From NCBI GenBank assembly GCA_964464765.1, contig CAYXJU010000002.1, positions 1-52,744 on the forward strand: 52,744 nt of DNA, written 5' to 3'. The notes beneath the pieces were generated by a model, which was given only the letters and a program-made list of their open reading frames with translations, did no database searches and had not been told where the DNA came from. The position numbers and the translations under genes are program-made. Positions 3,005 to 44,682 of the stretch are shown one piece after another (the stretch's first letter is position 1; the number at the start of each line of letters is the position of its first letter). The DNA is from an uncultured Candidatus Bathyarchaeia archaeon (GTDB lineage Archaea; Thermoproteota; Bathyarchaeia; 40CM-2-53-6; CAVXDP01).

Positions 3005-5746
3005 TTGCCTGTCTATACGTGGTCGGTTTCAGATGTATTCAAGAGGTTAGGTACAGCTCCGCATGGATTGACAGAAGAGGAAGCGAAGAAACGATTCAAA
3101 GAACAAGGTCCAAATAGACTGTCCGAACCGAAGAAAGCCGCGGCAATTAGCAAGTTTTTTTTTCAGTTCAAAGATTTGTTTAGCGCTCTTCTGTTGATTG
3201 CCGCCGTCCTAGCCTTCGTAAGCAGCATGATTGAGTTTGGCTTCGCTATATTCGTTGTAGTAATCGTCAACGCCGTACTGAGCTTTGTCCAAGAATATCG
3301 TGCAGAAAGAGCTGTCAAAGCTCTCAAACGATTCCTACCTTTTCGCGCCACTGTTGTTAGGGATAATGAACCGAAAGTCATCCCAGCCGAGGAGATAGTC
3401 CCCGGCGATCTGCTGGTTCTGAATGAAGGAGATCGCGTTCCAGCAGACGCGCGTCTTGTTGAAGCATTCGATCTGTTAACAGTCAATGTTGCTCTTACAG
3501 GCGAGTCGGAACCTCAGCCCAGAGACGCTGATCCCATGCCTGTTGAGACTGCATCATGGCTCGATGTCACGAACCTTGTCTTCATGGGAGTTACAGTGGC
3601 TTCGGGGTTTGGAAAAGCGGTCGTCTATGATACGGGGATGAGAACTCAATTTGGAAAGATCGCGGGCATGAGTGAATCGATAGAGGAGCCCCTCAGCCCA
3701 CTTCAGAATCAGATATCACATGCAGCCAAGGTCGATTTCGTCATAGCGATAGCCGTCGGGGTACTGTTCTTCACACTAGGCACACTCTGGTTGCACATGA
3801 GTCAGCTCACGGGATTTCTATTCATGATAGGAGTGATGATTGCATGTGTCCCAGAGGGTCTGCAGGTTACGGTCTCGACGGCTTTGGCTTTGGAAGTGGT
3901 TCGACTTGCCCGCGAAAACGTCCTCGTTAAGAGACTTTCAGCAGTAGAAACCTTAGGCAGCACTACCGTAATCTGCACAGATAAGACCGGCACAATAACC
4001 AAAGGAGAAATGACAGCAAAGAAGATTTGGATAAACGGAGAAACAATCGAGGTGACCGGTGAAGGCTACGCTCCATCAGGAAGACTCTATACAGGAAACC
4101 AAGAACTAGTCCCTGGTGAAAGAAAAGACTTAGAACTACTTCTCGAAGTATCCGCTCTCTGCAACAACGCAAGACTGGTTCCTCCAACGGACACACGTGG
4201 ACAGTGGAGAGTGGTAGGGGATCCGACTGAAGGATCACTTCTCACATTGGCACTTAAGATGGACATGAACATCAAAAGAGAACTAGCGGAAAAACCGTTG
4301 CGCAAACTCTTGCCCTTCGAATCGATAAGAAAAAGGATGACAACCATTCATAATACCAAAGATTGCCAAGTCGCATATGTCAAAGGTGCCCCCAAAGAGA
4401 CTCTGAACGTGTGCTCCTACGTTTTGGTGGGGTCTCAAGTTTCTCCACTGACTCAGGAACGTATCGATCAAATAAACATGGCGAAGAGAAGACTTGGCGA
4501 AGAAGGCCTCAGGATCCTTGCGGCCGCATACCGAGAACTGCCGAAGAATGTGGATGAGTGGACAGTTGATACCGTCGAAAAAGATCTTGTCTTCATTGGC
4601 CTGATCGGAATCTTAGATCCCCCAAGACCGGAAGTCAAACAAGCTGTTATGGAAGCGAAGAAGGCTGGGATAAGAGTTATTCTGATTACTGGAGATTATG
4701 GGCCGACTGCACTCACAGTGGCCCGACAAGTTGGAATCGTTGAAACAGAAAAATGCACAGTCATGACAGGAGCTCAGATGGATAAGATCACAGAGCCAGA
4801 CCTTATCAGACAAATTGATGCTGGAGAGATTGTTTTCGCACGAACTACGCCAGAACATAAGATGCGTGTTGTTTCACTGCTCAAGTCCATGGGAGAAGTT
4901 GTCGCGGTGACGGGTGATGGTGCCAATGACGCTCCATCCCTCAAGAAAGCGGACATAGGTGTCTCTATGGGGGTCGCTGGCACAGATGTGGCAAGAGAAT
5001 CCGCCGACATGATTCTGCTTGACGACAGTTTCGCGTCAATTTCGAAAGCCATCGAAGGTGGTAGAACAGTCTATGACAACTTGCGAAAATTCATCACTTA
5101 CGTCTTCGCACACAACTGGGCTGAACTAATACCTTATCTTCTCTTTGTTCTGGTTGGCATTCCACTTCCTTTGCTTGTGACCCAAGTACTGGCCATCGAC
5201 TTGGGTATCGAAGTAATTCCTTCGCTGGCCTTGAGCATCGAACCTCCGGAGCCAGATATCATGAAGAGACCTCCCAGAAGCCGAAAGGAACGAGTGTTCG
5301 ACTCTAAAACGTTGGCAAGATCCCTTTTCCTTGGCTTATTCGTCTGTTCTGTGGCTTTGATTGGTTGCCTATTAGTTTGGACGCATGGAGGCTGGAGGTA
5401 CGGTTTGAGCTTGAACGCCAATGACCCAATCTATCGGCAAGGGACCACCATGACGTTTGCTGGAATAGTCCTGGCCCAATCCGCAAACCTATTTGCGTGT
5501 AGATCGGGCAGAGTGTCGATCCGCAAGATCGGCGTCTTCAGTAATAGATGGATATGGTTTGGAATAGCGTCTCAGTTTCTAATCCTATCGGCCATCGTTT
5601 ACCTTCCAATTCTTCAAGAGATCTTTGGAACATACCCGCTCACAATTGAGAATTGGAGTCTGATACTCGTGCTCGCGCCTCTTCCGCTCATAGCTGAAGA
5701 GGTTCGAAGACACTTGACGAGTCGTATTCACGGCTTCATGGACTGA
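3005..5746 (+). CDS. P-type cation-transporting ATPase (P2-type, Ca2+/Na+-K+-like)
   Basis: 913 aa. Motifs present: TGES, PEGL in TM4, phosphorylation motif ICTDKTGTIT, hinge TGDGANDAPSLKKADIGVSMG, and 10 predicted TM segments. TTG start per the ORF track. Confidence 0.9.
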   Translation: MPVYTWSVSDVFKRLGTAPHGLTEEEAKKRFKEQGPNRLSEPKKAAAISKFFFQFKDLFSALLLIAAVLAFVSSMIEFGFAIFVVVIVNAVLSFVQEYRAERAVKALKRFLPFRATVVRDNEPKVIPAEEIVPGDLLVLNEGDRVPADARLVEAFDLLTVNVALTGESEPQPRDADPMPVETASWLDVTNLVFMGVTVASGFGKAVVYDTGMRTQFGKIAGMSESIEEPLSPLQNQISHAAKVDFVIAIAVGVLFFTLGTLWLHMSQLTGFLFMIGVMIACVPEGLQVTVSTALALEVVRLARENVLVKRLSAVETLGSTTVICTDKTGTITKGEMTAKKIWINGETIEVTGEGYAPSGRLYTGNQELVPGERKDLELLLEVSALCNNARLVPPTDTRGQWRVVGDPTEGSLLTLALKMDMNIKRELAEKPLRKLLPFESIRKRMTTIHNTKDCQVAYVKGAPKETLNVCSYVLVGSQVSPLTQERIDQINMAKRRLGEEGLRILAAAYRELPKNVDEWTVDTVEKDLVFIGLIGILDPPRPEVKQAVMEAKKAGIRVILITGDYGPTALTVARQVGIVETEKCTVMTGAQMDKITEPDLIRQIDAGEIVFARTTPEHKMRVVSLLKSMGEVVAVTGDGANDAPSLKKADIGVSMGVAGTDVARESADMILLDDSFASISKAIEGGRTVYDNLRKFITYVFAHNWAELIPYLLFVLVGIPLPLLVTQVLAIDLGIEVIPSLALSIEPPEPDIMKRPPRSRKERVFDSKTLARSLFLGLFVCSVALIGCLLVWTHGGWRYGLSLNANDPIYRQGTTMTFAGIVLAQSANLFACRSGRVSIRKIGVFSNRWIWFGIASQFLILSAIVYLPILQEIFGTYPLTIENWSLILVLAPLPLIAEEVRRHLTSRIHGFMD

Positions 5747-5808
5747 GTTACTTTTTCCGGAAAGATTCAGGTACTTTCGTAATCTTCGAGACTGCAAAGA
5801 TACTCCAG

Positions 5809-6327
5809 TCATCCACTTTGTCTAATCTCGGAACTGTTCCTAGGTCGGATGATCCTTAAGCTTCTAAGGAGATTTACAAGAATGAATCCCAGTATGCCTA
5901 TGCTTATGATTGAGCCAATCCCGACGCTTGCCCACCATATCCAATAGTCCATAACCGTTATTATCGCTAGGTAGGTTCCAACAACAAATGTAACAACCAC
6001 TATCGCCACTAAGCATCCGAGCAGTTCACTCGCTCTTCCCGATTTCCATGAGTTGATTCTCCATGCCAACAGACTTGCGATGAAGTTGGCGATGGAACCG
6101 AGTGTTACGTCTGTCACGACGCTTGGAAGTGGAGTGGCGATATTTGCTATGGCGCATCCAATAGTTACACCACAAACTACAGGCCAGCCGAAAATCATTG
6201 ATAATGGAATTAGTGCGTCTGCAATACGGATCTGAACGACTCCAAAACTTATGCCGGCAAAGATGAGTACTAGAACTGCGTATAGAGCTGCGAATGCGGC
6301 TGTTAGCATAATCGAGGTTGTTTTCAA
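5809..6327 (-). CDS. QueT-family (queuosine-precursor transporter-like) membrane protein
   Basis: 172 aa. AALYAVLVL...FGVVQIRIADALIPL...GCAIANI...DVTLGSIANFIA resembles the QueT family pattern, with about 5 TM helices. Confidence 0.55.
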   Translation of the reverse strand: MKTTSIMLTAAFAALYAVLVLIFAGISFGVVQIRIADALIPLSMIFGWPVVCGVTIGCAIANIATPLPSVVTDVTLGSIANFIASLLAWRINSWKSGRASELLGCLVAIVVVTFVVGTYLAIITVMDYWIWWASVGIGSIISIGILGFILVNLLRSLRIIRPRNSSEIRQSG

Positions 6328-6457
6328 TACTCCTTCCTGCTCCGGGATTTCTAAGGCGGAACGGATGGAAGGTCCCTCACCCGCCTGCTTGGATTATAGT
6401 ATCTGGTGCGCATAAAACTTTATTGAGTCTGGCTCGATCTGAACGGTAACCAAGCTG

Positions 6458-7654
6458 ATGCAGGCCATGTCGAACGCTAAGAATAGAACGATTCTCGGAG
6501 TATCAATGAATGTTTTTGCATTAGGCCTTGTCAGCCTGTTCACAGATATCAGCACCGAGATGATAGTCGCGATACTACCATTGTTTCTCGTTTTTGAGTT
6601 AGGAGCTTCAGGCGCCATCCTTGGCACAATCGAGGGAATTACTGATTCAACATCAAGTCTGTTGCAAGTCATATCTGGTTGGCTGAGCGACCGAGCCGGA
6701 AAGCGGAAACCGCTTGCAGGTCTAGGATACGGTCTCTCAACATTAATCAAACCTCTGCTAGCAATCTCGAAGGTTTGGCCTCAAGTTCTTGTGCTTAGAT
6801 TCCTCGATAGGGTCGGCAAAGGGATTAGATCCGCTCCCCGAGATGCACTCATTGCAGACTCAACTTCATCTTCGAAAAGAGGGAGGACGTTCGGACTTCA
6901 TCGTGCCTTGGACACTCTTGGCGCAGTTATAGGTCCAAGTTTGGCCTTTCTTCTGCTTCCGCTCTTCCTCTACCGTGGTGTCTTTGCGTGGTCTCTTGTT
7001 CCTGGTCTAGTCTCAGTAGCTATCTTACTATTCTTCGTTCGTGATCAGCCCAGAACTCCAATGAAGCGATTCCAATTGGTCGTTGGAATGAAGGGGCTGT
7101 CTAAGAAGTTCAAGAGGTATCTTTTCGCTGTCCTCATCTTTGGTTTGGGCAACTTTAGCAATGCGTTCTTCATCTTGAACACAAAGATCCTGTTGACTCC
7201 CCATTTCGGAAGCACCAACGCTGTCCAAATGACAATCCTGTTGTACGCTTTGATGAACGTGATCTATGCCTTATCATCGCTACCGATAGGTGCATTCAGT
7301 GACAAGATTGGGAAACGTGTGATGTTGGGTGTGGGCTACCTTGCATTTGGATTGACATGTTTTGGATTCATGTTCGTAACTGGCAACATCTTGATGATTG
7401 CAGGACTCTTCGTTCTAACAGGTTTCTTTGCAGCCTCCGTTGATACATTAGAAAGAGCTTACACGGCTGATCTCATTCAAGAAGACTTTCGAGGTACGGG
7501 ATATGGAGTCTTGCATACAGTTAATGGTGTCGCAGATTTGCCAGCAAGCGTTCTTGCGGGATTCTTGTGGAATACTTTCTCTCCTAGCATGACTTTCATG
7601 TACGGTGGCATAATGGCAGTTCTGGCTGTAGTTGCCTTGTGGACAATCAGGTAA
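6458..7654 (+). CDS. MFS transporter
   Basis: 398 aa with 12 hydrophobic segments. An MFS loop-2/3-like motif is present (GWLSDRAGKRKP), and a second copy occurs in the C-terminal half (GAFSDKIGKR). Confidence 0.75.
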   Translation: MQAMSNAKNRTILGVSMNVFALGLVSLFTDISTEMIVAILPLFLVFELGASGAILGTIEGITDSTSSLLQVISGWLSDRAGKRKPLAGLGYGLSTLIKPLLAISKVWPQVLVLRFLDRVGKGIRSAPRDALIADSTSSSKRGRTFGLHRALDTLGAVIGPSLAFLLLPLFLYRGVFAWSLVPGLVSVAILLFFVRDQPRTPMKRFQLVVGMKGLSKKFKRYLFAVLIFGLGNFSNAFFILNTKILLTPHFGSTNAVQMTILLYALMNVIYALSSLPIGAFSDKIGKRVMLGVGYLAFGLTCFGFMFVTGNILMIAGLFVLTGFFAASVDTLERAYTADLIQEDFRGTGYGVLHTVNGVADLPASVLAGFLWNTFSPSMTFMYGGIMAVLAVVALWTIR

Positions 7655-7705: not shown

Positions 7706-10015
7706 TCACGAAGGATAGCACACTCTCTTCTCAGCCATTCTTCTTTTGGCTTCTGGCCACAGTGCAAATGGCTCATATGTAGCGGAGCATCGACCGATAT
7801 GGGTGATCAGGGTAGACTCGCATTTTGGGCATTTGGAAACGATCCCTACAACGTAGTTTCTGCAGCCTCGGCAATACGAGAATTGATTCGCATAGGCGAA
7901 GGACAGTATCTTTTCCGACAGGAGCTCGTTGGTAAGTTTGTTTATCGTTCTGGAATCATGTTCTTTAGGTACGAGATGCACCGGAAGCATGTGCCCGCCA
8001 TTGGTCATAGCCTGAAACTTCGCTTCAATTCCTGCTCTCTCTTTGAGAGAGATCTTATTCGAAGGAGCCAAGGTTGTAAGATCTGTATAGCAGGGATGAG
8101 CTCTCGTGCCTCCAACTACGGTTGTGGCACGACCATACTTTTCCAAGTCCAACTCAGCGAGCCTTGTAGAGGCGTCGTCGCCGGGTCTCTGTGCGACCTG
8201 CAAACGCATCTCCAACTCGTCAGACATGGTTTTGGCTTCTTTAACGATTCTTGACACGACCTCAGAGGCAAACTTCATTGCCTTTTCATCTTTGTGAAGC
8301 TCACCTTCAGTATGATACTGCGCGGCCTCGTTTAATCCCACATAACTTATCGAGTATGACCCGTTGCTCTGATAGAAATATGGGGAGCTATCGAACGCAT
8401 TCGACAGGACTGGAAGAAGACCTTGCTTCATTCTCTCAACGATACCTGCTCTCTTAGACTTGAACGCTTCGACTGTCGTCTTCATGGTTTCCGAAAGCAT
8501 TTCAAACATAACATCGTCGTCTCTATGAGCTTCGTACGCGATTCTGGGAAGATTGAGGAACAGTGTAGCAAGGTTTCCTGTCCGAACGCAGTTCGTTTCC
8601 CAATCTCCCTTCCAATCGTCGCTGAGCTTGAGACCGCTCGACGTACAGGTCATTTTCGCATCTTCCTCGATGGCAACAAAATTTGGAAGACCATACTTAC
8701 CTGCCAAGCTGTGGATACTCGACAACAAAGGCTCCAGAGCTGGATCCTCAAGTGTCTTTCCCCTTATTTTGAAGATGAAACGTGGGTTAAGCAGAAGGTT
8801 GCGAGAAGCTACTTTTGCGATTGAGTCAACAGTAGCTTCGGCCAAAAGTCTGGTTTGATTCTTGAAATCGCCGTAGGTTCCCGCATTCTTACCATCCATT
8901 CCAATTGCGTCAACCTTCTCAAGAAAACTTGGAACAACCAGTTCTATTCCAAGGGAGAAAGAAGATTTTGACACGTTGGATCCGAGCCACCTGTTCAATC
9001 TGTCGAAAAAGACGCTAAGAATATCAGTCAATCTGTCTTTCCTCAAGCCCTCGGCAAAAGGAGCAAGGAATATGTTGAACATGTCAAATGACTGTTCATT
9101 CGACACTTCAGTGGAACAGAGATCGGCTACCCTCTCCATGACTGCAAGGGCGGACTGAAAGCTGCTTGGAGGACTCAAAATCGCTGATCCTTTTCTGAAG
9201 AAGAAACGAAGATCATGTTGAACCTCCTCGGGTTTCAAAACCCAATCATCAAGAGATCCAAGATGCACTTGACCTGAGAGATGGGCGTCTGCAACATCTC
9301 GAGGAACCCCATTTAGAAGCACATATTCCTCAAGCACAGAAGAGCCAGCAGACTCCTTCACAGAATTCACATCAAGTAGTCGATCGCTTGAATCGTTCAT
9401 AAGCAGAGTAACATCGTATACTGGCATTCCGAGTCTCGTGAGCTTGTGCCTGTAATCTTCAAGCTTCTTCTCCACTAAAATGGAGTTCATCAGCTCGCGT
9501 ATCAGAGGCGCCGTAAGATACTTCGTCTTGAACTTTAGAAGCCTCTCCTCGACTTCGGCTCCAAGCTCCTGTGCAAGTTCGTGTGGAACACCGGCCTCGC
9601 GAACTAATGAATCTGCGATTTTGTCTCTGTCAAATTCCTCGATTGAGAAGCGTGAAGTTCGGACAAGCAACTTCCCTTTCTTGACAGCCACATACTCCTC
9701 CACATCCCGACCAAATCCCACTATCATCTTTCCGAGTTCCGTTGTCGAATACTTTTTCGTCTCTTTGTCCATTTCCACAAGGCTTGCTTCAACAAGGCTT
9801 TTCAGATGGTACACAAATTTTCCAGCATCTCTGACTGGATCCAACTTAATGGAGGACATTATCTCCGTGTACGCAAACGGCCCCTTCGATGACAGAAGTC
9901 TGAGAATCTGCATACGTACCGGAGCTGACGCCGCGTCAAAAACCTCTGCACTCACTCTGTTTGTGGATTGCAACAAGCTCGCCTCAAGAGTCTTACAGAG
10001 ACAACTTATGGTCAT
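7706..10015 (-). CDS. Class III (anaerobic) ribonucleotide reductase NrdD-like protein with N-terminal ArsR-type wHTH and ATP-cone
   Basis: 769 aa. The N-terminus (VRMQILRLLSSKGPFAYTEIM...FVYHLKSLVEASLV) looks like an ArsR/wHTH domain. An ATP-cone follows (LLVRTSRFSIEEFDRDKIADSLV). The body is NrdD-like (LFLNLPRIAYEA). The C-terminal Zn ribbon is CRGCRN...CPKCES. The expected RxxGY glycyl-radical motif reads RCSATY. The true start may be an internal TTG/GTG, because a TATA-like run sits only ~12 nt upstream of the ATG. Confidence 0.75.
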   Translation of the reverse strand: MTISCLCKTLEASLLQSTNRVSAEVFDAASAPVRMQILRLLSSKGPFAYTEIMSSIKLDPVRDAGKFVYHLKSLVEASLVEMDKETKKYSTTELGKMIVGFGRDVEEYVAVKKGKLLVRTSRFSIEEFDRDKIADSLVREAGVPHELAQELGAEVEERLLKFKTKYLTAPLIRELMNSILVEKKLEDYRHKLTRLGMPVYDVTLLMNDSSDRLLDVNSVKESAGSSVLEEYVLLNGVPRDVADAHLSGQVHLGSLDDWVLKPEEVQHDLRFFFRKGSAILSPPSSFQSALAVMERVADLCSTEVSNEQSFDMFNIFLAPFAEGLRKDRLTDILSVFFDRLNRWLGSNVSKSSFSLGIELVVPSFLEKVDAIGMDGKNAGTYGDFKNQTRLLAEATVDSIAKVASRNLLLNPRFIFKIRGKTLEDPALEPLLSSIHSLAGKYGLPNFVAIEEDAKMTCTSSGLKLSDDWKGDWETNCVRTGNLATLFLNLPRIAYEAHRDDDVMFEMLSETMKTTVEAFKSKRAGIVERMKQGLLPVLSNAFDSSPYFYQSNGSYSISYVGLNEAAQYHTEGELHKDEKAMKFASEVVSRIVKEAKTMSDELEMRLQVAQRPGDDASTRLAELDLEKYGRATTVVGGTRAHPCYTDLTTLAPSNKISLKERAGIEAKFQAMTNGGHMLPVHLVPKEHDSRTINKLTNELLSEKILSFAYANQFSYCRGCRNYVVGIVSKCPKCESTLITHIGRCSATYEPFALWPEAKRRMAEKRVCYPS

Positions 10016-10344
10016 CTTGTTTAAAAAATTAGAGTTACCCTACTCAATCAATGATTGGATCACTCTCATGGAGTCACCTAATCTTCTCTTCCAACAGACT
10101 CAGGTCCTGTAGAGATGTATGTTGCAGGAAAGGATCAATCGACCAATTCACTCATTGTTCATCATGACATTCTGCTACGAATCACTCGCGGACATGCTTG
10201 GGATGACGCTCCCGATATTCGCCCTGTAAGAAGGAAAGAAGAGAAGGCTAAGACAGTTAGTTTTCCAATAGAACTTATTTCATTGTCATTCTCTTAGGCA
10301 CCATCACAACTATTTTTCTCGCTTTCTTTCCGGCGTTCGGAATC

Positions 10345-18245: not shown

Positions 18246-19148
18246 TTAGGAGATAGCTTTTAGTTGACTCACGTTTCCAAGATACGTTCCATCAAGCATG
18301 TGAACTTCAGCCTTCTCCATATCGATGCTTTGTGAACGCAGTATTGGACCTATGTACTCTTGTCTGAGTCTTGACTTGGTCCAAGATCCTCTTCTGTTTA
18401 TGGCTTGCCCACCGATGAAGTCATTGAAGCACGGTAGTATTATGCACTTTGAAGTTTTGAGTTCAACACTAAAACGTTCTCTTAGCTCAGTCTCTACTGA
18501 ATGAACCATCTTTATTTTCAGGCGTTTTAGAAGTGCTTGAGCAAGATTCTTTCTGTTGCACTCGGCTTTGACCCAAACCTGCCTCACAGCTCTCAGACCC
18601 AAAGGATCTGAGAAGACCACTACTGGATGAACATGACCCATCACCAAAGTTGAACAGCTCAAGAGTTCTGGTGATGGCCAAGCGTGACCGTGCACAAGCG
18701 CCACATCTCCAAGCACATTCACTCCGGAGGTTGGTAGAATCAGAACATCTCTAGGGGTTAATGGTTCCAGATTACCGTCATGGTTTCCAGGCACTACCTT
18801 GACTGTGGGAACCAGTCTGATTGCTTTCTCAAGAAATTCAGGCACGTCCCGCCATTCCTCAGGTTCGACTTTGGCAACCGCGTGTTTCACGTCGCCCAAT
18901 ATCACTAGTTCGGTAGGTGACACGACACGAACGATCTGTTCAAGCTTCTGTACGAGTTTCGTCGTTTGCGATGGGATGTGTATTCCCTGTTCAGATAGCG
19001 CGACCTCCCATCCTATATGAAGGTCGGCTATCACTAGTATCCGGTCCGCCTCGTTTCGGATCAGCAAAGCAGGATAGGGGCTGACTGGTTCAAGGACTGG
19101 TTGCAGGTTGTCATGCCTCCCGAAAGACTCTGATATTGTTGATATCAC
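18246..19148 (-). CDS. Calcineurin-like metallophosphoesterase (SbcD/Mre11-related, MPE-like)
   Basis: 300 aa with the ordered motifs LVIADLHIGWE, ILGDVKH, PGNHD, LVHGHAW and GHVHP. Confidence 0.8.
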   Translation of the reverse strand: MISTISESFGRHDNLQPVLEPVSPYPALLIRNEADRILVIADLHIGWEVALSEQGIHIPSQTTKLVQKLEQIVRVVSPTELVILGDVKHAVAKVEPEEWRDVPEFLEKAIRLVPTVKVVPGNHDGNLEPLTPRDVLILPTSGVNVLGDVALVHGHAWPSPELLSCSTLVMGHVHPVVVFSDPLGLRAVRQVWVKAECNRKNLAQALLKRLKIKMVHSVETELRERFSVELKTSKCIILPCFNDFIGGQAINRRGSWTKSRLRQEYIGPILRSQSIDMEKAEVHMLDGTYLGNVSQLKAIS

Positions 19149-41199: not shown

Positions 41200-41835
41200 T
41201 TGTCGAAACATTGTTCTACAGGGCGTGAATCTTTCAAATTGAAGAAGGGTTCAAAGAAGTTGACAAGAGCTGTGCTGATCATCATGATTGTGATTGGTTT
41301 GAGCGTGGTCCTTCCTGGCTACATAACGATGCAGCGGAAAGAACTGGTTGAACCAGTGGGGTCGCTTTGGTTGGAAGAAGATTCAATTCTTGATCCGAAC
41401 TCGATACGTTTGGCTTGGGGGGTTCGTGCGCCACCCGGAAAAAATACTGATGGTTGGATCTTCGAGATTCTCTTGGAGGCTAATGACACTATTTGGCTTC
41501 GCTCGATGTGGTACGAAACAAATCAAGTCTTCTATGAATCGCATGGAAGCGCCTTGAAGACGACCGTTGTAATTAACGTGGATGAAAAGACTTCGAGAAT
41601 GGAATGGGTGTGGTATCTAGAGAATCCATCATCAAGCACAATCATGTTACATATAATGCGCGTTAGCTATTCTGGATTCCGGCAACCTCTCCGTACAACA
41701 GGAGTCATAACAATAGCGATCGGTGTGACAGTTTGTTTGGTTGCGTCTTCCCGACTTGTTCAAACTAGGAGTGCCCATAATCAGATTACGAAAGACCGAA
41801 CGAGTACAAGCTTCCCTGAGAATCTGCGTTCCTAG
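41200..41835 (+). CDS. Hypothetical membrane protein
   Basis: 211-aa ORF (TTG start) with an N-terminal TM ([15 protein letters not shown]) and a C-terminal TM ([14 protein letters not shown]). No family recognised. Confidence 0.4.
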
Positions 41836-44009
41836 GTCGAACAGGTTCTGCATCCACCATTGTATTCAGAATTTAATGGCCGAATCACGTTCCCACCAAC
41901 ACCTGCTTTGTTGACCATGCTGATGTTAAGAACCTGTTCTTCACGGCTTCCGTCCCGGTAAACTGTTATGCCTTTGCAACCGATCTTGTAGGCTAGCATG
42001 AAGACTTCTTCAACGTCTTTTGGAGTTGCATCGTGCGGAAAGTTAACTGTCTTTGAGACTGCGTTGTCAGTGTGTTTCTGGAATGCTGCCTGAATTCTGA
42101 CGTGCCACTCCGGCGAGATATCATGCGAGGTTACAAAGACGCGTCGAATATCTGCTGGGATTCCTGCTAGGTCTTGGATCGAACCTCTTTCAGCGATTTT
42201 TCTCATTAATTCTTCACTGTGAAAACCTCTCTTGTACGCCACGGATTCGAAAATTGTATTCACTTCAAGGAGTTCAGTGCTGTCCATTACGTTACGGATG
42301 TAGGATATGGCGAATATCGGTTCGATTCCACTTGAACAGTTGGCGATTATGCTGAGGGTGCCAGTGGGGGCAATTGTCGTGGTTGTAGCATTCCTTAGTC
42401 TTTGGCCTCCTCCTGCAGCATAGACGCTTCGTTCGTAGTTCAAGAAGGTTCCACGTTTCTTTGCCAAATTCTCGCTGGCTTTTTTGGATTCGAGTTGAAT
42501 GAATTCCATAACCTCTTCTGCGATCTTGAGTGCATCATCCGAATTGTATGGAATGCCCAGTTGGACTAGCATATCTGCAAAACCCATGACGCCAAGGCCG
42601 ATCTTCCTATTTGCCTTTGTAATCTCGTCGATTTGTCTAAGTGGATAGCGGTTCATGTCGATAACATTGTCGAGGAAGTGAACAGTGGTTCTGAGGGTTT
42701 TGGCAAGTGTTTCATAGTCAATCTTTTCATCTTTCACCATCCTTGCAAGGTTGATCGAGCCGAGGTTACATGACTCGTACGGGAGGAGTGGCTGCTCGCC
42801 GCATGGATTTGTGCTCTCGATCTGGCCTACGTCAGGTGTGGGGTTGTCCTTGTTCATCCTGTCGATGAAGATCATGCCCGGCTCACCATTCTTCCAAGCC
42901 TGGTGAACTATCAGGCTGAACACTCGTCTAGCCTTCAGTTTTGTGGCGGCTTCACCGGTTCTAGGGTTTGTCAGCTCATACTCGTCGTCGTTTTCAACGG
43001 CTGCCATGAATTTGTCTGTTGCCGCCACTGAGATGTTGAAGTTGTTGAGTCTGTCATTATCTTCCTTTGCGAAGATGAACTCGATTATGTCGGGATGGTC
43101 AACTCTGAGGATGCCCATGTTCGCGCCTCTTCTAGTTCCACCCTGTTTCACAGTCTCTGTGGCTGCGTCAAAGACCGCCATGAAGGAAACTGGGCCGCTC
43201 GCAACTCCCTTCGTCGAGAACACTACATCATTCTTCGGTCTTATCTTGGAGAATGAGAAGCCTGTGCCTCCGCCGCTCTTGTGGATTAGGGCGGTGTTCT
43301 TGATGGCTTCAAAGATGCTTTCCATCGAGTCCTCTACCGGGAGGACGAAGCACGCTGAGAGTTGTTGAAGTTCTCGACCTGCGTTCATAAGGGTTGGTGA
43401 GTTCGGCAGAAATTCAAGGTTCGTCATGAGTCTGTAGAATTCTTCTTCTGTCATTTTCATATCGGCGTTCGGATCGTATAGCGCGTCGGCGCTTGCAATA
43501 TTCTGGGCTACTCGGCGAAACATAGCTGTCGGAGTTTCGATTGGTCGACCAGATTCGTCTTTTCTAAGATATCTGCGTTCCAAGACGTTTATCGCGTTTG
43601 GTGATAGTCTACCATCAAGATCGGAGTCCAGAAGCATCGACTTAGTTTCACGAATCGTCTTGCGTTGTTGGCGGTAGAGAATATACGCCTTCGCCATTCT
43701 AGCGTGTCCGGCCTCGATCAGTACGTCTTCGACAACGTCTTGAACATCTTCAACCGTTGGAATAGATTTTTCATCATATTCAGTGTTGAGGATTTGGATC
43801 ACTCTCCGGGACAACGTTTCCGCGATAAGTCTGTCCTGCTGTCCCACTGCTTGGGCAGCTTTCAAAATTGCGTTTGTTATCTTCTGGCTGTCAAACGTGA
43901 CTATTCTACCGTCTCTCTTGCGAATCTGAGAAATCCTAGCCTTCAGTGTCTCAACTGCTTCTACCTTAATGGACTCACGTGAGCGATCTACTTTTGCATC
44001 CAATGACAA
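41832..44009 (-). CDS. nrdJ: Class II (adenosylcobalamin-dependent) ribonucleotide reductase with N-terminal ATP-cone
   Basis: 725 aa. ATP-cone is [23 protein letters not shown]. Finger-loop/catalytic block is [23 protein letters not shown]. The C-terminal redox pair is GGCRTCS. No NrdB-like gene is nearby, which favours class II. TTG start. Confidence 0.85.
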
Positions 44010-44682
44010 TGATCTCCACAGAAATGTGGCAATAGGTGTCTATTGCCGTACGTCAACTACAGGCCATCAGGAGTTTAATGATTCTTAACTGTTTTGTATA
44101 AACTTCTGTACTGATCACTACTTGAAATTGTACTTCACAAAGAAAATCTCTGCAAGGGTCAGACACATCTTCGCCGAGGTTCATGTAGACTACATCATCT
44201 GAATAATCGGACTTGCTCTATTAGTCTAGATCTTCAAGAAGAACACACATTGGTAGTCGAAAATCTCCCAAAGAGGAATGTATCGGAATCCGAGAACAAT
44301 TTGAAGATGATGATTATTCAAGACAACTGCGGAATATCCGTTCTCCATGTCAGAGTTTCATTGGAAGGTTGCAGATGATTTCAGAATTCTTAATGGCGCA
44401 CAACCTAGAGGTCTCGCGCTGCAGCTTGGCGCTTTGAGGAGACTTGTCGAAGCTGGAGTGAGTTGCCATCCAGCAGTAATGGCATCTTTCTCCTCGTATG
44501 GGTTATTGAAGCGTTACGAAAGAGAATACAACGGACAGCTGTAAACTAGGAGAAATGATAGAAATTGAGGAGACAATCACGTACCCGCAGGTTGCTGAGA
44601 GAATGGAACGTTATGGACTAAAGCCTTACGTTTTACACTTGCCAAGCGATGTTCCAGATCGAATGATCTGATTGAGGATATT

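Follow-up and report, generated by a model that had tools for sequence, protein, structure and literature searches.

The stretch of DNA analysed here (the window, 52,744 nt) comes from an uncultured Candidatus Bathyarchaeia archaeon. Its reverse strand carries a gene for a protein in which a winged helix-turn-helix (wHTH) and an ATP-cone-like domain are followed by a catalytically dead version of NrdD, the anaerobic (class III) ribonucleotide reductase (RNR). This gene and its relatives in other genomes are called here the wHTH-NrdD family, and each of them a family gene. The longest open reading frame (ORF), 769 aa at 7706..10015 (-), extends up to ATG 10015 and is present as the original prediction described it, except that this start probably lies 13-14 codons too far upstream. 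Translation probably begins at TTG 9976 or 9973, because these codons are preceded by the Shine-Dalgarno sequence GAGG at 9985-9982, the equivalent TTG is the start in homologues and in the models of gene callers, and ATG 10015 lies only 4 nt past a promoter box (the own box described below). The family gene of the window thus spans 7706..9976 (-), and its product has 756-769 aa depending on the start.

The winged helix is of the ArsR/SmtB type and occupies residues 23-100 (9716..9949 (-)). It scores 36.3 bits with DUF7347 (cutoff 27.6), 27.7 bits with HTH_20 (cutoff 27) and 24.9 bits with HTH_metalloreg, and it is intact in both the long and the short gene model. An AlphaFold2 model was built from a 57-sequence alignment of the family, with a mean predicted local distance difference test score (pLDDT) of 85. 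Its secondary structure here (helices 32-44, 49-55 and 64-76, strands 80-83 and 88-91, pLDDT 80-88) fits a wHTH. This domain is the best-conserved part of the family. Residues D59, P60, D63, A64, G65, F67, V68, Y69, H70 and L71 are invariant, and the recognition helix (RDAGKFVYHLKSL in the window), with its R-D-A-G-K-F-V-Y-H-L, is essentially invariant across the family. Over the N-terminal ~200 residues, identity to the closest representatives is 55-66%, versus 47-50% at full length for most listed homologues.

The ATP-cone that had been predicted next to the winged helix corresponds to an ATP-cone-like domain (residues 116-195, 9431..9670 (-)), which is borderline and non-canonical. The match to PF03477 at residues 118-188 scores 25.6 bits against a Pfam cutoff of 25.8, and the hairpin VRTSR replaces the canonical V-x-K-R-D-G, whose basic Lys-Arg pair contacts the phosphates of the nucleotide. 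Some other members of the family are annotated with PF03477. Residues R119, R122, K132, Y188, R189 and K191 are conserved, and R194 is also kept. The domain is collinear with the N-terminal domain of the type A/B genuine NrdDs that are encoded next to some family genes, and the family and these NrdDs share the unusual pattern VRTS..F...KI...LIRELV...Y..LTRxGxPVYD. Since this N-terminal domain is common to both, the family probably arose when a type A/B-like nrdD was duplicated and the copy then gained the wHTH and lost catalytic residues. Stand-alone proteins of a wHTH plus a cone were sought among the matches to the N-terminal part; the short ones look like fragments, and none was established.

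The rest of the protein is clearly NrdD-like, as predicted, with an LNLPRIA block and a C-terminal Zn ribbon (CRGC...CPKC, residues 715-732). NRDD (PF13597) matches residues 222-767 with 236.5 bits (cutoff 26.2, E 8e-70). With the AlphaFold2 model as Foldseek query, the best 36 PDB matches are all NrdD, with E from 1e-27 to 1e-18. The protein thus has the fold of RNRs and glycyl radical enzymes, a 10-stranded alpha/beta barrel with a finger loop. They include the NrdDs of P. copri, S. thermophilus, T. maritima and T4, and the alignment to the ATP-cone-bearing P. copri NrdD covers ~700-760 columns. In the NrdD equivalog model TIGR02487 (cutoff 326.35) the window protein reaches 264.4 bits. Members of the family score 264, 237 and 325.6 bits, versus 526-570 bits for the adjacent genuine NrdDs (one representative per subtype).

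The fusion is widespread. The first protein search listed 120 full-length relatives with 46-80% identity, nearly all of which carry both the wHTH (DUF7347 and/or HTH_20) and NRDD. Those with a taxon name are almost all from Bathyarchaeia, and most of the relatives carry the annotation anaerobic RNR. When one genome per GTDB species was scanned, at least 585 loci with a relative came up, again almost all in Bathyarchaeia. The N-terminal 202 residues used as a query retrieved 126 clusters at 50% identity (E < 1e-30). Nearly all of these matches begin in the first ~40 residues, and most of the full-length ones have ~600-800 aa. The continuous reading frame and the same architecture in the 126 clusters rule out a fused gene-model artefact.

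Loss of the residues for radical catalysis

The catalytic positions were located in two alignments, one of a family profile with solved NrdD structures and one of 196 family members with 15 genuine NrdDs from related loci. Both agree on the residues that were lost. In the window, an NrdD-type alpha/beta barrel without radical residues is defined at 7916..9352 (-) by PF13597, the column counts and the AlphaFold2/Foldseek comparison. The Zn ribbon and the former glycyl-radical loop, GRCSATYEPFALWPEAK, follow at 7709..7879 (-), and the four Cys of the ribbon (C715, C718, C729 and C732) are invariant in the family.

The loop of the window protein contains the string RCSATYEPFALWPEAK at residues 742-757. 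Where NrdD has the radical motif R-[VI]-x-G-[YF], Ala745 (7781-7783) occupies the column of the radical Gly and Thr746 that of the following Tyr in the alignments to T. maritima NrdD and to the 15 genuine NrdDs, just as the original prediction had read them. Its anchors in the alignment are R742 before these residues and, after them, K757 and W753, which is invariant in the family. A shift that would make Gly741 (of 'HIGR') the radical Gly was considered and rejected, because R742, P749, W753 and K757 hold the loop on both sides; Gly741 lies one residue before the conserved Arg, in a column where genuine NrdDs have Ser. The radical column contains Gly in only 9 of the 196 family members and in all 15 genuine NrdDs.

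Four other features of the active site have been lost as well, so that what had been called a possibly radical-dead protein is found to lack more than its Gly. The Cys of the first strand, or bottom Cys (Cys125 in T. maritima and Cys171 in P. copri), is conserved in all known RNRs (PMC4493059). Its column holds Glu264 (9224-9226) in the window protein, Glu in 181 and Cys in none of the 196 family members, and Cys in 15/15 genuine NrdDs. The column of the finger-loop Cys, aligned to the Cys of 'MGCRSF' in the profile alignment, holds Leu462 (8630-8632); in the family it is Leu in 153/196 and Cys in 16/196. Genuine NrdDs have Cys on this loop, but the MAFFT alignment to the type A/B NrdDs is gapped there. 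The other two features are the HxHD triphosphate motif and the NxN substrate flap of NrdD (PMC4493059, PMC11226230), the latter covering the substrate in P. copri NrdD (PMC11226230). HxHD is replaced by HLGS (9254-9265) in the window protein, and its second His is found in 0/196 family members versus 15/15 genuine NrdDs. The flap is absent from the family members displayed, while the genuine NrdDs displayed have ENANLQ or ENSNM.

No family member combines the Gly with both Cys (0/196). The catalytic loss is a family trait and not a quirk of the window protein. Loss of the finger-loop Cys would be inconclusive by itself, because T. maritima NrdD is active although its crystal structure shows Ile, not Cys, at the loop tip (PMC4493059); judged from the residues, the other four losses offer no such escape. 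The former active-site columns now hold the conserved acidic residues E264, E303, E307 and D268. The specificity site and loop 2 of T. maritima were also mapped onto the family, with an alignment too uncertain to judge whether an effector site is retained.

A subclade of Gly-bearing sequences is found in soil Bathyarchaeota metagenome-assembled genomes (MAGs) named 'BA_' and their relatives (L062, L064, L065, L066, L068, L072, L075, L076 and L077; L-numbers are locus labels). Their motif is AKYAGR, or GRYSGR in L075. Most of them also have the finger-loop Cys in GC[IM]F, and none has the bottom Cys. This soil subclade may be an evolutionary intermediate.

Ribonucleotide reductase genes and their promoter boxes

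The association of the family with RNR genes was examined in 80 family loci, fetched at species level. In 18 of the 80, a genuine nrdD lies downstream of the family gene on the same strand, with a gap of 170-665 bp. These nrdD genes belong to three subtypes, whose C-termini are RITGYY..GWNAGK, RVTGYY..GWNKGK and RVVGYL..WNDGK. An NrdG2-type activase gene follows nrdD in L058 and L079 (194 bits, cutoff 131), and in group B a glutaredoxin/NrdH-like ORF precedes nrdD. Such synteny is seen only in more distant relatives of the window's lineage, and neither the window nor its 77%-identity relative L001 shows it. As had been predicted for NrdG, neither nrdD nor nrdG was found in the window by tblastn or by a scan for CxxxCxxC. 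The window does contain a complete gene for a class II (B12-dependent) RNR, nrdJ, at 41832..44009 (-), again as predicted. It was identified with Pfam, has a canonical ATP-cone and exceeds the cutoffs of NF006417 (1043 vs 961 bits) and TIGR02504 (762 vs 400 bits). Its homologues at 70% identity are named vitamin B12-dependent RNR of Bathyarchaeia. In the source genome this nrdJ is the presumed regulatory target.

Genes of aspartate carbamoyltransferase are also found nearby in a number of loci. A convergent pyrB, mostly with pyrI, lies beyond the family gene or nrdD in L002/L046, L010, L047, L052, L053, L057, L058, L067, L074, L080 and L082. This is a recurrent nucleotide-metabolism neighbourhood in Bathyarchaeia and is absent from the window.

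The gap between the family gene and nrdD contains a conserved promoter box, GTACAGAA-TTTATACA-N4-TGTMTAAA, hereafter the RNR box. The fullest form of this intergenic motif is GTACAGAATTTTATACAGAATTGTCTAAAA. Its core, TTTATACA-N4-TGTMTAAA, is an inverted repeat, which is perfect in L133; the form with a perfect palindrome is TTTATACAATTATGTATAAA. The degenerate 17-mer NTAYANNANTTTAWAYA has 13 matches in 1.31 Mb of loci, and 12 of them are in the gap just downstream of the family gene, corresponding to the nrdD promoter (this count includes L073, where the contig ends before the downstream gene). Boxes are found at nrdD promoters in at least 14 loci.

The same box stands before nrdJ. In the window it is GTACAGAAGTTTATACAAAACAG at 44089..44111 (-), and the class II RNR gene starts about 80-100 bp downstream of it. 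It is the single window match to TACARAANTTTAWACA (0.02 expected) and, at 44111-44095, the single one to NTAYANNANTTTAWAYA (0.02 expected). With a position weight matrix (PWM) made from nrdD-promoter sites of other genomes only, this nrdJ site scores 24.3 bits, while the next-best site of the window scores 13.3. The second-best match, GTACAGAAGCTTGAACAG at 18953 (-), with 13-16 bits, is inside the coding region 18246-19148 (-) and probably due to chance. The nrdJ box is kept in the 87%-identity nrdJ relatives L084 and L122. Four further Bathyarchaeia loci (L131-L134, ~70% identity) were tested, and all four have the palindromic box 55-160 bp upstream of nrdJ with 0-2 mismatches; two of them share a contig with a family gene (L008 and L031). 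The nrdJ promoters of Odinarchaeum and Micrarchaeia were used as negative controls and show no box by eye. The possibility that the RNR box is simply a generic promoter element of Bathyarchaeia was rejected as a full explanation, as its patterns are nearly absent from the other ~1.3 Mb of sampled sequence.

A third GTACA is present at the nrdJ promoter of the window (44129-44133 (-)). It precedes the opening GTACA of the RNR box by 22 bp, or two helical turns, and L084 and L122 retain it as AGTACAAT, which suggests that the nrdJ promoter has more than one binding unit. The presumed 5' untranslated region contains, after the RNR box and before the nrdJ start, a perfect hairpin, GGCAATAG-ACAC-CTATTGCC (44028-44047 (-)), and L084 and L122 have a GCAATA...TATTGC hairpin at the same place. 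This hairpin might provide a further layer of regulation or serve for processing.

Sites similar to the RNR box also occur directly after family genes that are not followed by nrdD (L052:2679-2760 and L053:4974-5055, each with a convergent pyrB). Such sites may be left over from an nrdD operon that has been lost, or may be the promoter of a small gene missing from the annotation. Two other kinds of match were judged to be chance: the PWM match ATACAGAAATTTATACTAAT... in the coding region of non-Bathyarchaeial nrdJ loci, where it codes for 'YTEIYT', and one match inside a gene in L029.

A related box is deeply conserved at the promoter of the family gene itself, ACTACAATTTTTTAAAC, with the consensus aAcTacAaTTTTTTAAAC derived from 62 of the 80 loci. 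In the window this own box is ACTCTAATTTTTTAAACA at 10018..10035 (-), ~45 nt upstream of the start codon, a position where it overlaps with the presumed TATA box. In 2 x 1.27 Mb of loci there are 59 copies of the 10-mer TTTTTTAAAC, of which 51 are no more than 200 bp upstream of a family gene (binomial P ~1e-103). On the two strands of the window it occurs once, at 10028-10019 (0.01 expected). In an ungapped alignment, the own box agrees with the left two-thirds of the RNR box at 12 of 17 positions. In L058, L079 and L061 a box of the own-box type stands before nrdD instead, and this placement links the two types and points to one recognition system. In Bathyarchaeia, conserved boxes mark the promoters of RNR genes of both classes, III and II, and the family's own promoter has a related one. 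One MAG, MFD02248.bin.2.124, contains two family paralogues on different contigs (L025 and L035), each with an own box upstream.

Proposed regulatory role, alternatives and known systems

The window protein would be best explained as a transcription factor dedicated to RNR genes and derived from a duplicated archaeal nrdD, a reading that we hold to be somewhat better than an even bet. The earlier proposal of a regulator analogous to bacterial NrdR gains support from the adjacency to nrdD in 18 of the 80 loci and from the boxes at the nrdD, nrdJ and own promoters. A possible mechanism can be outlined as follows. An NrdD-like dimer would place its two winged helices on the inverted repeat TTTATACA-N4-TGTMTAAA, with half-sites 12 bp apart, and on the flanking GTACA. 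With the boxes lying over or next to the region of the TATA box and the TFB-recognition element (BRE), the protein could control the access of TBP and TFB. Because of this position, repression by excluding TBP and TFB would be the likelier mode. Through its own box the protein would regulate itself. The ATP-cone-like domain, the remodelled barrel, or both might sense a metabolite, most likely ATP/dATP or deoxyribonucleoside triphosphates (dNTPs), and ligand binding would couple RNR expression to the nucleotide pool. Nucleotide sensing is plausible by descent, although the barrel may bind something else, and the signal is the weakest link of the scheme. To the complete picture (an autoregulated factor made from a dead class III RNR, whose wHTH reads the RNR box and whose cone and barrel read the nucleotide pool, as the Bathyarchaeial counterpart of NrdR) we would give about equal chances of being right or wrong.

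Several observations weigh against this reading. Binding of the protein to the boxes is something we infer from association alone, and in most loci, the window included, the family gene is not adjacent to an RNR gene. At the nrdJ site of the window the right arm of the palindrome is degenerate (4 of 8 mismatches), and a Bathyarchaeota nrdJ locus with 64% identity (L137) shows no clear box. The own promoter of the window scores below 10 bits with the nrdD-derived PWM, and its box overlaps a T-rich TATA element, so that its conservation could partly be basal-promoter constraint. As for the sensor, the ATP-cone match falls just under the Pfam cutoff, the Lys-Arg pair of the hairpin is Thr-Ser, and the degraded, acidic substrate site argues against binding of nucleoside triphosphates there.

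The acidic site could instead belong to a bifunctional trigger enzyme, in which the barrel has taken on a new activity, catalytic or binding but not radical-based, through the newly conserved Glu264, His267, Asp268, Glu303, Glu307 and Gln308, while the wHTH only autoregulates or tethers in the manner of PutA or BirA. The active-site columns have not drifted but hold conserved polar or acidic residues, and the barrel, Zn ribbon and C-terminal loop are strongly constrained (R742, S744, P749, W753, K757 and the four Cys), which would fit such an activity. However, no known chemistry corresponds to this set of residues, the neighbourhood hints at no other pathway, conservation peaks in the wHTH and cone and not in the barrel, and the boxes at RNR promoters and the adjacency to nrdD already account for a regulatory role. 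We regard the trigger enzyme as unlikely. The conserved C-terminal domain, whose counterpart in NrdD probably contacts NrdG (PMC4493059), could also be explained if the protein served the class III system as a non-catalytic partner or decoy that forms heterodimers with NrdD or sequesters NrdG, the wHTH being secondary. The nrdD adjacency in 18/80 loci and the N-terminal domain common to type A/B NrdDs are compatible with it. Yet genomes like the source one show a family gene and a boxed class II RNR with no nrdD or nrdG nearby, the association extends across three NrdD subtypes, which fits promoter recognition better than a protein-protein interface, and the invariant recognition helix and the conserved boxes would be left unexplained. 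Such a partner or decoy appears improbable.

It is also conceivable that the protein binds DNA but that the RNR boxes are bound by another factor, for example a cell-cycle regulator, and that the family gene is co-regulated rather than regulating. RNR genes are commonly under cell-cycle regulation. The link between protein and box is that of co-occurrence, and the own box and the RNR box are similar, not identical. Against this, in ~1.6 Mb from many genomes good box matches fall at the promoters of RNR and family genes; the exceptions are a 2-mismatch site in the non-Bathyarchaeial, AT-rich L097 and one site inside L018. This restriction argues for a dedicated rather than a global regulator, and no wHTH gene other than the family gene is consistently linked to the box promoters. 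A separate box-binding factor is thus given only a small chance, similar to that of the decoy. Least probable by far is a still-functional class III RNR with an unconventional radical site. T. maritima NrdD is active despite its non-Cys loop tip (PMC4493059), and the soil subclade keeps the radical-column Gly together with the finger-loop Cys. In the window protein, however, neither the Gly nor the bottom Cys is present, and HxHD has lost its second His and the NxN flap is gone; the three radical residues never occur together in a family member, nrdG is missing from the window, and genuine NrdDs are often encoded next door.

If the family is a dedicated RNR regulator, it can be compared with NrdR, which is rare in archaea (PMC9110341). 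Like NrdR, the family protein is predicted to be a nucleotide-responsive regulator dedicated to RNR genes of several classes and often to its own gene. NrdR has an ATP-cone-type domain borrowed from RNRs, and the family protein has its borderline, cone-like one. The operator boxes of NrdR overlap the promoter (PMC9110341), and in the family conserved boxes are found at the nrdD, nrdJ and own promoters. The differences are considerable. NrdR has ~150 aa with an N-terminal Zn ribbon, an RRRR motif and an ATP-cone, whereas the family protein has no N-terminal Zn ribbon, its DNA-binding part is a non-homologous ArsR-type wHTH, its cone is non-canonical and it carries a whole dead NrdD body of ~550 aa. 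The family box TTTATACA-N4-TGTMTAAA is unrelated to the NrdR-box palindromes and lies in an archaeal TBP/TFB promoter. The wHTH-NrdD protein would therefore be a functional analogue of NrdR and not a homologue. Paired palindromes like classical NrdR boxes, e.g., ACAATATCTTGT and ACTATATATAGT, were seen in the bacterial nrdJ loci L086, L104 and L114, metagenome loci that had been retrieved as relatives of the class II RNR of the window and provide a contrast to the archaeal box.

With respect to NrdD, the family is clearly homologous. It has kept the LNLPRIA block and the Zn ribbon, its radical loop still has the R...W..K frame, and its cone is collinear with that of type A/B. It differs by the extra wHTH, the loss of the radical Gly, bottom Cys, finger-loop Cys, second HxHD His and NxN flap, and scores below the TIGR02487 cutoff. 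ArsR/SmtB-type regulators, among them archaeal DUF7347 and HTH_20 proteins, share with it the profile matches (DUF7347, HTH_20), the typical xxYHLxxL recognition helix and the beta wing. Unlike these small stand-alone dimers, the family wHTH is fused to a ~650-aa enzyme-derived sensor, and no metal-sensing sites were identified in it. ROK repressors, PyrR, PutA and BirA are other enzyme-derived regulators. The likeness to them is one of concept, in that the fold of a metabolic enzyme serves as the ligand sensor in a regulator of the pathway to which the enzyme belongs.

If the regulator reading is correct, it would provide an archaeal counterpart of NrdR of independent origin, the first glycyl-radical-enzyme fold known as a transcriptional sensor, and a clear case of an essential enzyme duplicated into a regulator of its own pathway, with the allosteric scaffold kept and the radical chemistry discarded. 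The family offers a candidate protein and a candidate operator sequence for archaeal RNR regulation, both of which are testable. A literature search found no publication describing the family, no description of an archaeal NrdR equivalent and no earlier regulator built from an RNR or any glycyl radical enzyme. The only hint of the fusion found is the automatic JGI label 'anaerobic ribonucleoside-triphosphate reductase/predicted transcriptional regulator'. Under the current annotation as 'anaerobic ribonucleoside-triphosphate reductase', hundreds of Bathyarchaeia genomes would be wrongly assigned a class III RNR and, with it, an anaerobic dNTP supply. Because the protein lacks five defining catalytic features and stays below the TIGR02487 cutoff, the name RNR should be dropped from its annotation. 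For the abundant and mostly uncultured Bathyarchaeia, the prediction of regulons from sequence is one of the few ways to approach their physiology.

The direct neighbours of the family gene in the window (3005-7654) encode a major facilitator superfamily (MFS) transporter, QueT and a P-type ATPase, with no functional link apparent between them and the family gene. The three genes are syntenic in L001 (12278-17250), where the ATPase is split into two ORFs. In Odinarchaeum yellowstonii (CP091871), an unrelated gene for a 234-aa ArsR-type protein (HTH_5/HTH_20) lies immediately upstream of nrdJ (L135:717-1421), with the palindrome CGTATACATTATACG between the two genes; this protein may be another lineage-specific RNR regulator. 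Among the close NrdJ homologues, P0354, P0358, P0362 and others contain inteins (PF14528, PF14890), and P0347, P0363 and P0370 are fused to a thioredoxin-like domain (PF13192).

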